DNA of 64,000 nt from Escherichia coli (GTDB taxonomy: Bacteria; Pseudomonadota; Gammaproteobacteria; Enterobacterales; Enterobacteriaceae), in the NCBI RefSeq assembly GCF_003334305.1, contig NZ_QOWS01000020.1. One strand, written 5' to 3'. Of the stretch, positions 1,684 to 59,968 are shown piece by piece. Position numbers and translations under genes: made by a program. Each line of letters opens with the position of its first letter. Positions within the stretch are counted from its first letter, which is position 1. A model generated the notes under the pieces. It searched no databases and was not told the DNA's origin. It worked only from the letters and a program-made list of their open reading frames with translations.

Positions 1684-3006
1684 ATGCAAGCCTATTTTGA
1701 CCAGCTCGATCGCGTTCGTTATGAAGGCTCAAAATCCTCAAACCCGTTAGCATTCCGTCACTACAATCCCGACGAACTGGTGTTGGGCAAGCGTATGGAA
1801 GAGCACTTGCGTTTTGCCGCCTGCTACTGGCACACATTCTGCTGGAACGGGGCGGACATGTTTGGTGTGGGGGCGTTTAATCGTCCGTGGCAGCAGCCTG
1901 GTGAGGCACTGGCGTTGGCGAAGCGTAAAGCAGATGTCGCATTTGAGTTTTTCCACAAGTTACATGTGCCATTTTATTGCTTCCACGATGTGGATGTTTC
2001 CCCTGAGGGCGCGTCGTTAAAAGAGTACATCAATAATTTTGCGCAAATGGTTGATGTCCTGGCAGGCAAGCAAGAAGAGAGCGGCGTGAAGCTGCTGTGG
2101 GGAACCGCTAACTGCTTTACAAACCCTCGCTATGGCGCGGGTGCGGCGACGAACCCAGATCCTGAAGTCTTCAGTTGGGCGGCAACGCAAGTTGTTACAG
2201 CGATGGAAGCAACCCATAAATTGGGCGGTGAAAACTATGTCCTGTGGGGCGGTCGTGAAGGTTACGAAACGCTGTTAAATACCGACTTGCGTCAGGAGCG
2301 TGAACAGCTGGGCCGCTTTATGCAGATGGTGGTTGAGCATAAACATAAAATCGGTTTCCAGGGCACGTTGCTTATCGAACCGAAACCGCAAGAACCGACC
2401 AAACATCAATATGATTACGATGCCGCGACGGTCTATGGCTTCCTGAAACAGTTTGGTCTGGAAAAAGAGATTAAACTGAACATTGAAGCTAACCACGCGA
2501 CGCTGGCAGGTCACTCTTTCCATCATGAAATTGCCACCGCCATTGCGCTTGGCCTGTTCGGTTCTGTCGACGCCAACCGTGGCGATGCGCAACTGGGCTG
2601 GGACACCGACCAGTTCCCGAACAGTGTGGAAGAGAATGCGCTGGTGATGTATGAAATTCTCAAAGCAGGCGGTTTCACCACCGGTGGTCTGAACTTCGAT
2701 GCCAAAGTACGTCGTCAAAGTACTGATAAATATGATCTGTTTTACGGTCATATCGGCGCGATGGATACGATGGCACTGGCGCTGAAAATTGCAGCGCGCA
2801 TGATTGAAGATGGCGAGCTGGATAAACGCATCGCGCAGCGTTATTCCGGCTGGAATAGCGAATTGGGCCAGCAAATCCTGAAAGGCCAAATGTCACTGGC
2901 AGATTTAGCCAAATATGCTCAGGAACATAATTTGTCTCCGGTGCATCAGAGTGGTCGCCAGGAGCAACTGGAAAATCTGGTAAATCATTATCTGTTCGAC
3001 AAATAA
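1684..3006 (+). CDS. xylA: xylose isomerase (440 aa)
   Basis: Track ORF trimmed to [17 protein letters not shown]...; full-length match to XylA as recalled. Confidence 0.95.
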
Positions 3007-57946: not shown

Positions 57947-58846
57947 TCAGTCCAGGTGCTCTTTCATTACGCCAGCCAGCCACTGCATAAACAGGTTTAC
58001 ACGCCGGGAAAGCTCCCGACGCTGCGGGTAAACCAGCGAAAGGGAGAGCGGCTCGGCACGGTAGCCTGGCAACACTTCAATAAGCCGCCCGGCACGCAGG
58101 GCTTCGCGCACGGCAATGCGCGGGATCTGAATAATCCCCAGACCGGCAAGACCGGCGGCGAGATAGTTTTCGCTACTGTTTACCGTCAACATGCCGCCAG
58201 ACTTAAACCACTGGACGCCATTAACGCTGGCAACCTCAAAACCTAACGGATGTACACCCAGGTGCGGTGTATAACGCACTATTGCGTGTGAAGTCAGATC
58301 ATCGGGGCTTTGCGGATAACCAAAGCGCGTCAGATAGTGCGGACTGGCACAGTTGACCATGGTCAGTTTGCCGAGGGGACGGGCGATAACGCCATCTTCC
58401 GGTAACGCGCCAGTGCGTATCACGCAATCAAAACCATCATGAAGAATATCTACCGGACGGTCATGGCTACTCAGTTCCAGCTCAATTCCCGGATGCAGAT
58501 AGAGAAATTCCGACAGGCGCGGCAGTAACAGGCTTTTCGCGATTCCTGGCGGGATGTCGATGCGTAATTTACCGCTGATACTGGTGGCATCCTGTTGAAA
58601 CAGACCGTCCAGTTCGCTGAGATTACTCAACACATCTTTTGCTCGTTGATAATAGGTCATGCCTTCTGGCGTGAGTTTGACCCGTCGCGTGGTGCGCTGG
58701 AGAAGCTGGGTGCCAAGTTGATGTTCCAGTGCCTGTATCTGGCGCGAAACACTTCCTTTTGGCAAAGCAAAGAAATCCGCCGCGCGGGAAAAACTTTCCA
58801 GCTCCGCGACTTTGATGAACAACTGCATTGCGTGAATTTTATCCAT
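57947..58846 (-). CDS. yhjC: LysR-family transcriptional regulator YhjC (299 aa)
   Basis: Track ORF trimmed to MDKIHAMQLFIKVAELESFSRAADFFALPKGSVSRQIQALEHQLGTQLL (LysR HTH). Confidence 0.9.
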   Translation of the reverse strand: MDKIHAMQLFIKVAELESFSRAADFFALPKGSVSRQIQALEHQLGTQLLQRTTRRVKLTPEGMTYYQRAKDVLSNLSELDGLFQQDATSISGKLRIDIPPGIAKSLLLPRLSEFLYLHPGIELELSSHDRPVDILHDGFDCVIRTGALPEDGVIARPLGKLTMVNCASPHYLTRFGYPQSPDDLTSHAIVRYTPHLGVHPLGFEVASVNGVQWFKSGGMLTVNSSENYLAAGLAGLGIIQIPRIAVREALRAGRLIEVLPGYRAEPLSLSLVYPQRRELSRRVNLFMQWLAGVMKEHLD

Positions 58847-59365
58847 TTCTTTGACCGATTGTTGTTCACAGCGAAACAGTAACGCGCATATCGCATTGTT
58901 TATTGTTTTTTCTAACATCTAATGCCGGGTTTCACAATGTTGTCATGACGAATGTGGCGATTTCTCAGCAGGAAAAGGGCGGAATAGCTTTCTGAGAAAG
59001 GTGAATCCCCCTAAACAGAGCGTATTTTTCAGCGATTCCCTTTAAAGTGAATAGAGGACGTGTTGGCTATTTGTGCTTATTTTTGTCTCATTGCCGTTTG
59101 TTATTTTTGCTTGTGGTCGCGGAGTTTCATTTTTAATTGCATGCGTACTAACCACCAATATAAGGAAATCCTCAAAATTGTTTTAAATAGTGCCCTCGAC
59201 ATGTAATTTCAGGCGTTTAGCTGTAACTATTTATATCGGTAACTATTTTCTACGCGTCATCTCTGTAGAATGGCCACCGCCAAATGGCGAATTCTTATTT
59301 TTTCTCGCGGGTAATACCCTTCCACTACTTAAGTCTTTTTAACGTATTCAGGTGGAGATTCAGTT

Positions 59366-59968
59366 ATGCAAATAGTCATGTTTGACAGGCAGTCAATATT
59401 TATTCATGGAATGAAAATCAGTTTACAGCAGCGTATTCCAGGAGTGAGTATTCAGGGGGCCAGTCAGGCAGACGAGTTATGGCAAAAGCTGGAAAGTTAC
59501 CCTGAAGCCTTAGTTATGCTCGATGGCGATCAGGATGGTGAGTTTTGCTACTGGTTGCTGCAAAAAACCGTGGTGCAGTTTCCTGAGGTTAAGGTGTTAA
59601 TCACGGCGACGGATTGCAATAAACGGTGGTTACAGGAAGTTATCCATTTTAATGTGCTGGCCATTGTGCCTCGTGATTCAACCGTCGAGACATTTGCGTT
59701 GGCGGTAAATAGTGCGGCGATGGGGATGATGTTTCTGCCTGGAGACTGGCGGACGACGCCGGAAAAGGACATTAAAGATCTCAAATCGTTAAGCGCCCGC
59801 CAGCGGGAGATTTTAACCATGTTAGCGGCGGGCGAATCAAATAAGGAGATCGGCAGAGCGCTGAATATCAGTACCGGAACGGTAAAAGCGCATCTGGAAT
59901 CCCTGTATCGCCGTCTGGAAGTGAAAAATCGCACCCAGGCGGCAATGATGTTAAATATCTCCTCCTGA
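59366..59968 (+). CDS. yhjB: LuxR/FixJ-family response-regulator-like protein YhjB (200 aa)
   Basis: C-terminal LuxR HTH (LSARQREILTMLAAGESNKEIGRALNISTGTVKAHL). Confidence 0.88.
   Translation: MQIVMFDRQSIFIHGMKISLQQRIPGVSIQGASQADELWQKLESYPEALVMLDGDQDGEFCYWLLQKTVVQFPEVKVLITATDCNKRWLQEVIHFNVLAIVPRDSTVETFALAVNSAAMGMMFLPGDWRTTPEKDIKDLKSLSARQREILTMLAAGESNKEIGRALNISTGTVKAHLESLYRRLEVKNRTQAAMMLNISS

Follow-up and report, generated by a model that had tools for sequence, protein, structure and literature searches.

A strongly conserved 64-bp core upstream of yhjB in the rcdB-yhjB spacer of Escherichia coli as a probable control element of the orphan response regulator YhjB

This study provides comparative evidence that the spacer between rcdB (yhjC) and yhjB of E. 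coli contains a 64-bp core close to yhjB, which is most likely a strongly constrained and previously undescribed control element of the orphan response regulator YhjB. The core includes a small hairpin followed by a T-run, for which the first-pass annotation of this DNA had suggested a leader attenuator, the end of a small transcript, or an H-NS-bound silencing region. The hairpin and T-run are real, yet taken by themselves they are close to the chance level; their terminator-like look is incidental, and the conservation is the real signal. The core has been kept more strictly than the YhjB protein since the split of Escherichia, Salmonella and Citrobacter, and it thereby probably marks the site of yhjB control. 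No annotation was present at the core in the genome records examined, and the literature searched held nothing describing the core or any yhjB promoter. To our knowledge, YhjB is among the last E. coli response regulators without a known kinase, signal or regulon.

Layout of the rcdB-yhjB spacer and conservation of the core

The window, that is, the whole 64-kb stretch of DNA analysed, is from E. coli, and its genes were named according to the RefSeq annotation of matching genomes together with a list of open reading frames (ORFs). The gene order annotated in the matching RefSeq records is yhjD, rcdB (yhjC), the gap, yhjB and treF. Window positions, as used in Table 1, were converted to K-12 MG1655 coordinates by NC_000913.3 = 3731260 minus the window position. 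For the RcdB site, published as 3670355-3670371 (U00096.2), the conversion used an offset of +1977 and the yhjB ATG at 3671894.

The spacer extends from 58847 to 59365, and its length of 519 bp, as given by the first-pass annotation, was borne out by the RefSeq annotation of matching genomes. The same annotation had described the spacer as unusually long and unusually AT-rich, and both descriptions hold in part. A gap of 519 bp is long, but locally it is not exceptional, being the third longest among the 29 gaps in the surrounding 40 kb, where the longer ones measure 798 and 579 bp. Its GC content of 39.5% is well below the 51.6% of the window, but since the other gaps within the window have 33-39% GC, this AT-richness is ordinary for intergenic DNA here. 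The neighbourhood adjoins the acid fitness island and has many long gaps. Position 58919, where the first-pass annotation let the AT-rich region begin, is the end of a longer ORF of 323 codons. The spacer is present in 5424 of 5426 complete E. coli genomes, on the chromosome every time, and no annotated feature or RNA lies under it among the E. coli matches listed or in MG1655.

Table 1. Features of the rcdB-yhjB region in window coordinates
Feature	Position	Strand	Basis or remark
rcdB (yhjC), LysR-family regulator, annotated 299-aa start MDKIH	57947-58846	-	RefSeq annotation, ORF list
yhjC-proximal control region	58847-58950		Conserved across all genera examined, 13-taxon alignment
RcdB/YhjC ChIP-exo site	58912-58928		PMC8464067, supplementary file 5; 66-82 bp upstream of its own ATG (autoregulatory position)
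Weak PhoB box TTTCACAATGTTGTCATG	58930-58947	+	PMC10294691, Table 1; sequence read
Fast-evolving AT-rich spacer middle	58951-59156		Differs already between Escherichia clades; lacks any conserved ORF or element
Near-palindrome TAAGGAAATCCTCA	59161-59174		Conserved in 13/14 taxa; candidate activator site, ~-111 from proposed start
TGTAAT island	59202-59207	+	Invariant or nearly so in 14 taxa
Island AGCTGTAACTATTTATAT	59219-59236	+	Conserved; ~-59 to -42 from proposed start
64-bp core: GTAgAATGGCC, 4 variable nt, CCAAATGGCGAATTCTTATTTT, 6 variable nt, GGGTAATACCCTTCC	59262-59325	+	14-taxon alignment
Candidate -10 hexamer TAGAAT, then invariant GGCC discriminator	59266-59271	+	TAnAAT conservation
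14-codon upstream ORF MATAKWRILIFSRG and stop	59270-59314 (ATG 59270, TAA 59314)	+	ORF comparison, 18 loci
Hairpin CGCCAAATGGCG, 4-bp stem, AAAU loop	59278-59289	+	Sequence read and folding
T-run TTCTTATTTTTT	59292-59303	+	Sequence read; alignment of 14 taxa
Palindrome GGGTAATACCC	59309-59319	+	Right part AATACCCTT invariant; left arm varies uncompensated
yhjB Shine-Dalgarno GGAG, 8 nt before ATG	59354-59357	+	Kept in 13/14 taxa
yhjB, orphan NarL/LuxR-type response regulator, 200 aa	59366-59968	+	RefSeq annotation, ORF list

We propose that the spacer may be a composite divergent control region made of three parts. The first, about 100 bp adjoining rcdB/yhjC, would carry the control sites of that gene, namely the RcdB site and the weak PhoB box; the next, about 200 bp, would be fast-evolving AT-rich DNA; and the last, about 210 bp, would be the control region of yhjB and includes the 64-bp core with its hairpin and T-run. 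In four Citrobacter species, the yhjC-proximal block makes up the 119 bp that separate yhjC from a divergent short-chain dehydrogenase (SDR) gene. The RcdB ChIP-exo site overlaps a conserved stretch, TTTTTCTA.CA.CTAAT. The PhoB box was reported with a ChIP score of 2 and with expression unchanged in a phoB deletion (PMC10294691, Table 1), and a Salmonella SoxS ChIP site lies within the genus-specific middle of the spacer.

The yhjB loci of Escherichia (five lineages), Citrobacter (five), Intestinirhabdus and Salmonella (three) were compared. The core was 80-95% identical to that of E. coli in 13 taxa, in which the four-fold sites of yhjB were 38-76% identical. For Citrobacter, Salmonella and Intestinirhabdus, the same 80-95% stands against 38-50% at the four-fold sites, 71-76% for the yhjB coding sequence and 72-81% for the protein. 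Within the core, a 22-mer and a 15-mer are invariant. In E. coli, the core is present in a single copy, and 5046 of 5414 genomes (93%) carry it with an identity of at least 99%, a level that the whole spacer reaches in only 1715 of 5424 (32%). Within Escherichia, moreover, the entire 210 bp adjoining yhjB (59157-59365) are almost invariant. No copy of the core was found on true plasmids, and a repeated or mobile element was rejected for the core because of this and its single copy. The apparent plasmid matches were three chromosome-sized E. coli records and one 6-kb Salmonella record.

The comparison also showed to which gene the core belongs. An SDR gene divergent from yhjC lies intact between yhjC and yhjB in four Citrobacter species and is a pseudogene in C. 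rodentium, and in E. fergusonii yhjC has been lost altogether. Across Citrobacter, with the SDR gene in between, and E. fergusonii, the core is kept at 84-94%, with 94% in E. fergusonii itself. Since it persists where yhjC is lost or separated from it by the SDR gene, the core belongs to yhjB and not to rcdB.

Far from lacking sequence conservation, the hairpin and T-run thus lie inside the most conserved 64 bp of the locus. The conservation concerns the sequence and not the hairpin as an RNA stem-loop: both small palindromes of the core vary on the left arm only, and their right halves are invariant. The core is a sharply delimited site to which mutagenesis, DNA or RNA pull-downs and reporter screens can be directed.

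A candidate promoter and operator for yhjB

The reading that we prefer, and to which we give about an even chance, is that the core holds a weak, activator-dependent yhjB promoter with TAGAAT as its -10 element, together with a conserved operator or initial transcribed region, within a spacer reported to be bound by H-NS. We infer which hexamer acts as the -10, where transcription begins and that the adjoining stretches serve as an operator. According to this proposal, GTAGAATGGCC would be the core promoter of yhjB, with the -10 TAGAAT, a G+C-rich discriminator and no -35 element, and the first transcribed nucleotide would lie at about 59276-59279. The invariant CCAAATGGCGAATTCTTATTTT and GGGTAATACCCTTCC would serve as a promoter-proximal operator or as initial-transcribed sequence bound by one or more putative regulators, and the three conserved islands further upstream (near -111, -76 and -50) would be candidate activator sites. 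H-NS would coat the entire AT-rich spacer, holding expression low.

Several data support this assignment. The third position of the -10 hexamer is G or A, and the remaining T, A, A, A and T are invariant in the 14 taxa; Salmonella, Intestinirhabdus and C. amalonaticus read TAAAAT. The pattern of T-A-n-A-A-T, GGCC and four variable nucleotides is what would be expected of a -10 element followed by a discriminator and by a start-site region free of constraint. TAGAAT at 59266-59271 has the T at -12, A at -11 and T at -7 that characterize sigma-70/sigma-S -10 elements, but only CTATTT is found at the -35 position 17 bp upstream, and the TG of an extended -10 is off by one. Of the elements that define a promoter, the core thus has the -10 and lacks the -35; because neither a -35 nor an extended -10 is present, the promoter would be weak and would need an activator. 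Neither a consensus scan nor a position-weight scan found a consensus-grade promoter on either strand, and in the position-weight scan the top score was below the shuffle median and TAGAAT was not among the top matches.

Published expression data are in line with this proposal and in part support it independently. An Affymetrix probe set on the yhjB strand, whose limits coincide with 58919-59365, was transcribed in vitro by RNA polymerase alone, from naked genomic DNA as the template, with a sigma-S/sigma-70 ratio of 1.58 (PMC3141248). The yhjB RNA is low in the cell (252 units; PMC10294691, Table 1), and this, along with the lack of a strong promoter, fits a weak, regulated and H-NS-silenced promoter. 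In Salmonella, yhjB was induced 7-20-fold by indole (PMC3405474), indicating that yhjB is under strong transcriptional control.

The lack of a -35 and of an extended -10, the absence of TAGAAT from the top matches of the position-weight scan and the 14-codon ORF discussed below also count against the promoter and operator reading, and two further observations run counter to it. An alternative pairing of hexamers, TGGCCA and TATTTT at 59271 and 59296 with 19 bp in between, exists in the same core. Furthermore, 22 invariant asymmetric nucleotides are long for a single protein site and would suit a target at the RNA level too.

The candidate activator sites are conserved in their own right. The near-palindrome TAAGGAAATCCTCA becomes perfect, as TAAGGAATTCCTTA, in E. 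coli E69 and E. fergusonii, and it presumably resembles the GerE/LuxR-type (RcsB-box-like) sites. In Escherichia, the AGCTGTAACTATTTATAT island is part of a direct repeat with units of 15 nt (59218-59232 and 59234-59248) and a spacing of 16 bp. When the known consensus sequences for PhoB, CpxR, OmpR, TyrR, the MarA/SoxS box, the NarL heptamers, the RcsB box and the sigma-54, -32, -E and -28 promoters were compared by eye, only partial resemblance was seen, and no site is claimed. The partial resemblances are the RcsB-like palindrome at 59161-59174 and a NarL-like TACCCTT. Autoregulation by YhjB was considered as well and rejected: YhjB has a single ChIP-exo site, dhaK, and the dhaK-dhaR region shares no 8-mer with the block upstream of yhjB, where 2 would be expected by chance.

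Concerning H-NS, the suggestion of an H-NS-bound silencing region finds its support in the literature. Table 1 of PMC10294691 marks the yhjB/yhjC region as bound by H-NS, citing an earlier ChIP study, and the spacer has the AT-richness associated with such binding (39.5% GC, with 51.6% for the window). A scan for the high-affinity motif TCGATAAATT did not discriminate either way: the spacer has one site with two mismatches (59157-59166), and the motif is not enriched in the window, with 178 sites where 179 were expected. In the literature searched, no data on H-NS derepression of yhjB were found.

Alternative readings of the core and the spacer

The strongest of the alternatives, which we still regard as rather doubtful, is that transcription reaches the core from a promoter lying upstream of it, so that the conserved single-stranded CCAAAUGGCGAAUUCUUAUUUU and AAUACCCUUCC in the 5' UTR of yhjB act as RNA. 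They might bind a small RNA or an RNA-binding protein, or else provide a weak anti-Shine-Dalgarno (UUCC with GGAG), and would in this way govern translation or the stability of the mRNA. In favour of this, the invariant sequence is long, lacks symmetry and is placed 45-90 nt before the ATG, and no strong promoter is predicted directly upstream of the core, as this reading would have it. RNAalifold on the 14 taxa returned three 4-bp helices, namely the hairpin, GGGU/ACCC, and the invariant UUCC with the Shine-Dalgarno GGAG, and the minimum-free-energy fold of E. coli sequesters the Shine-Dalgarno. However, the covariation term was +0.05, no compensatory pair occurred in the 14 taxa, and pairing of the Shine-Dalgarno was in no taxon higher than in shuffled leaders (fraction at or above the observed value 0.23-0.85). 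The stability of the leader was also not significant (z = -1.41), and the best Rfam match had E = 1.4, so that by these measures the leader does not class as a structured cis-regulatory RNA. We know of no partner RNA for the yhjB leader. At the Shine-Dalgarno itself, Citrobacter sp. RHB25 reads GTGGAG. An N-terminal extension of YhjB from the ATG at 59284 was also considered; it is in frame in E. albertii and Citrobacter, but since the frame differs in Salmonella and is shifted in E. coli, no such extension is conserved.

More broadly, the core could be an undescribed cis-regulatory leader of yhjB that acts after initiation, either through a 14-codon sensory upstream ORF (MA.AKWRILIL..G) or as the target of a small RNA or protein, which we consider unlikely. 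If true, such a leader would make yhjB expression respond to a signal, for example indole.

Translation of the 14-codon ORF (consensus MA.AKWRILIL..G and stop), with translation itself or the nascent peptide controlling yhjB, is less probable again. The ATG, inside GAATGGCC, and the TAA, inside GGGTAATACCC, are at invariant positions; no indels occur across the 45 nt in 14 taxa, and indels appear just downstream; and the ORF is intact and of the same length in 16 of the 18 loci. The K-W motif of the ORF presumably recalls TnaC. The indole induction of Salmonella yhjB (PMC3405474) would suit a sensory peptide as well. The first-pass annotation had recommended looking for a conserved small ORF, and although this one is widely intact, its substitutions are not coding-like. 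At codon positions 1, 2 and 3, it has 8, 6 and 6 variable sites of 13, as compared with fractions of 0.50, 0.35 and 0.87 in yhjB, and in codons 4-10 the third positions are invariant and the first positions change. The absence of a third-position excess indicates selection on the nucleotides and not on the peptide. In addition, no Shine-Dalgarno precedes the ORF, which ends after 6 codons in Citrobacter sp. Marseille and continues to 20 codons in Citrobacter sp. RHB25; no downstream terminator is available for it to control; and its start codon shares nucleotides with the best -10 candidate. Should this -10 be correctly assigned, the TAGAAT promoter would not transcribe the ORF.

It is very improbable that the spacer holds no specific element at all, being AT-rich, H-NS-coated filler, perhaps left by loss of the SDR gene, with a hairpin by chance. 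The region is reported as H-NS-bound, its middle 200 bp evolve fast, the SDR gene stands here in four Citrobacter species with a decayed copy in C. rodentium, and the stability of the hairpin is at the chance level, all of which would agree with filler. A 64-bp core more conserved than the yhjB coding sequence is, however, impossible for neutral filler, and neither tblastn nor nhmmer, which do detect the C. rodentium pseudogene, found anything left of the SDR gene in E. coli, Salmonella or Intestinirhabdus. The idea of the spacer as a decayed copy of the Citrobacter SDR gene was accordingly rejected, and a gene-loss scar as the origin of the long spacer is, with no detectable remnant, no more than conceivable. 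An alignment by hand of the first SDR codons was suggestive at most. The filler reading is thus refuted for 59157-59365 and is reasonable for 58951-59156.

The reading of the hairpin and T-run as an intrinsic terminator, that is, as a yhjB leader attenuator or the 3' end of a small RNA derived from the spacer, is nearly excluded. Both features were found where the first-pass annotation had placed them, CGCCAAATGGCG at 59278-59289 and TTCTTATTTTTT at 59292-59303, and the 3' end of the T-run is 62 nt upstream of the yhjB ATG. In favour of a terminator, the sequence is conserved and, in E. coli, the U-tract TTCTTATT begins 2 nt past the G+C stem. By a looser definition of a stem with a T-rich tail, which was fitted to this example after seeing it, such a combination arose in just 0.75% of spacer shuffles and six times in the 64-kb window. 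The stem, however, has 4 pairs, where at least 5 are required and 7-12 are typical, with -6.5 kcal/mol and z = -0.89, and 43 of 200 shuffles folded equally well. The terminator-consensus scan of 58700-59500 gave 0 sites with 0.8 expected. On these shuffle, folding and scan figures, the motif is mildly unusual and not of terminator grade.

The alignment and the published transcript ends point in the same direction. S. enterica, S. bongori and Intestinirhabdus have lost outer pairs of the hairpin (pair 9-20 in 2 of 14 taxa and pair 10-19 in 1 of 14), and the 5' arm varies with no compensatory change in any pair across the 14 taxa, so that a search for covariation, as the first-pass annotation had advised, returned none. 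The six-T run is particular to E. coli proper; the other taxa read TTATTTTAC or TTATTTTG, which interrupt the U-tract (UUAUUUUAC), and TTCTTATTT within the T-run is invariant in 13 of 14 taxa, with TTTTTATTT in Citrobacter sp. RHB25. As for transcript ends, the K-12 Term-seq tables (PMC7815308) list no 3' end on the yhjB strand within the spacer, at a weakly expressed gene; the only 3' ends that they give near yhjB are 3671519(+), antisense inside yhjB, and 3671289(+), after treF. The suggested leader attenuator therefore finds neither a terminator-grade stem, covariation or an alternative structure nor a K-12 Term-seq 3' end on the yhjB strand. The same evidence speaks against the end of a small transcript, together with an Rfam search that gave nothing better than E = 1.4 and no RNA annotated under the spacer in the E. 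coli matches listed or in MG1655.

Comparison with known control regions

Like the intrinsic terminators and leader attenuators of trp, pyrBI and thr, the yhjB leader has a G+C hairpin and a T-rich tract upstream of a gene, with a short ORF overlapping. It differs in that its hairpin is of 4 bp and is accompanied by no mapped 3' end, antiterminator pairing or covariation, and in that the short ORF has no run of regulatory codons and does not evolve as a coding sequence. With the regulatory leader peptides TnaC, SpeFL and MgtL, the yhjB region has in common a short ORF that precedes a regulated gene and keeps its length, start and stop, and Salmonella yhjB responds to indole. In contrast with them, the ORF upstream of yhjB has no Shine-Dalgarno, no coding-type substitution pattern and no evidence of a downstream terminator or Rho site, and it is broken in 2 of 18 loci.

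The spacer also resembles the divergent regions between LysR-type regulators and their targets, as rcdB is of the LysR family, is divergent and has its own ChIP-exo site 66-82 bp upstream of its ATG. The yhjB core, however, lies about 420 bp from rcdB and persists where rcdB is absent (E. fergusonii) or separated from it by the SDR gene (Citrobacter), and in Citrobacter it is the SDR gene rather than yhjB that occupies the classical position of the divergent target. The control regions of the acid fitness island, such as gadE-hdeD (798 bp), are similar in being long, AT-rich, reportedly H-NS-bound and upstream of a gene for a LuxR-family regulator, and they share with the yhjB region weak consensus promoters and multiple regulator sites. 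They differ in that yhjB has no defined promoter, activator or small RNA, and in that its H-NS binding is given by the flag in a single table. The core is useful to research on YhjB and is unlikely to surprise a specialist: the region is of a common bacterial kind, that of divergent LysR/target spacers with H-NS laid over them.

Variable middle and rcdB-proximal side of the spacer

Hydrophobic ORFs that overlap one another can be read in each of the three frames across the T-rich, variable middle of the yhjC-yhjB spacer; their lengths are 29, 37 and 48 codons, and one example is MLAICAYFCLIAVCYFCLWSRSFIF. As this stretch is not conserved among Escherichia clades, the ORFs look like by-products of base composition. 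For Salmonella, a SoxS ChIP motif, GCACATTTTGTTAAA, has been reported for yhjB<>yhjC, and it falls within the central spacer DNA peculiar to Salmonella, some 320 bp upstream of yhjB; the E. coli window has no counterpart of this motif.

On the side of rcdB (yhjC), list 8 of the published ChIP-exo supplement (PMC8464067) places a site of a second transcription factor, marked as RNA-polymerase-bound, which overlaps the weak PhoB box. This region is probably the rcdB promoter area.

Coordinates of the features at the yhjB locus (plain positions, window; L-handles, loci of relatives in their own coordinates)
Feature	Position	Strand	Source
Hydrophobic ORFs	59047-59206	+	
SoxS motif, Salmonella	L015 1671-1685	-	
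List-8 ChIP-exo site	58938-58976		PMC8464067
Antisense RNA 3' end in yhjB	about 59741; K-12 3671519	window minus, K-12 +	Term-seq, PMC7815308
SDR gene or remnant, five Citrobacter loci	L016 884-1642; L018 899-1657; L007 1360-2118; L017 875-1633; L014 1168-1646		
Non-treF downstream genes	L013, L015, L017 about 2580-2970 and 3245 onward; likewise L016, L018		
Locus without yhjC/rcdB, E. fergusonii	L011 1441-2000		
yhjC/rcdB fragment, Escherichia sp. MOD1-EC7003	L002 about 2048-2212		

The yhjB coding region and its downstream neighbors

In the published Term-seq supplement, an antisense RNA 3' end lies inside the yhjB coding region in two conditions, which implies that an antisense transcript enters yhjB from the treF side. 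In Salmonella and several Citrobacter species, yhjB is followed not by treF but by genes for a protein resembling phage lysozyme, an acetyltransferase and a large HEPN_STY4199-domain protein.

In the window, yhjB occupies 59366-59968. Some E. coli strains encode a 211-aa YhjB variant (protein P0014, found on 221 contigs), and comparison of the YhjB proteins P0010-P0023 and P0014 showed that it is identical to the usual protein to about residue 163 and differs beyond, presumably owing to a frameshift. The divergent tail takes the place of the helix-turn-helix domain's C-terminal portion, so that yhjB may be inactive in these strains.

Loss of yhjC, and gene content between yhjC and yhjB

The E. 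fergusonii locus lacks yhjC/rcdB, and in Escherichia sp. MOD1-EC7003 only a 55-aa fragment of it is left and the spacer has lost its left part as well; the yhjB-proximal block is unaltered in both.

No short-chain dehydrogenase (SDR) gene was detectable at the Escherichia, Salmonella and Intestinirhabdus loci. In C. rodentium it is a frameshifted remnant, and in four Citrobacter species an intact SDR gene of 252 aa separates yhjC from yhjB and is divergent from yhjC, the classical position of a LysR target.
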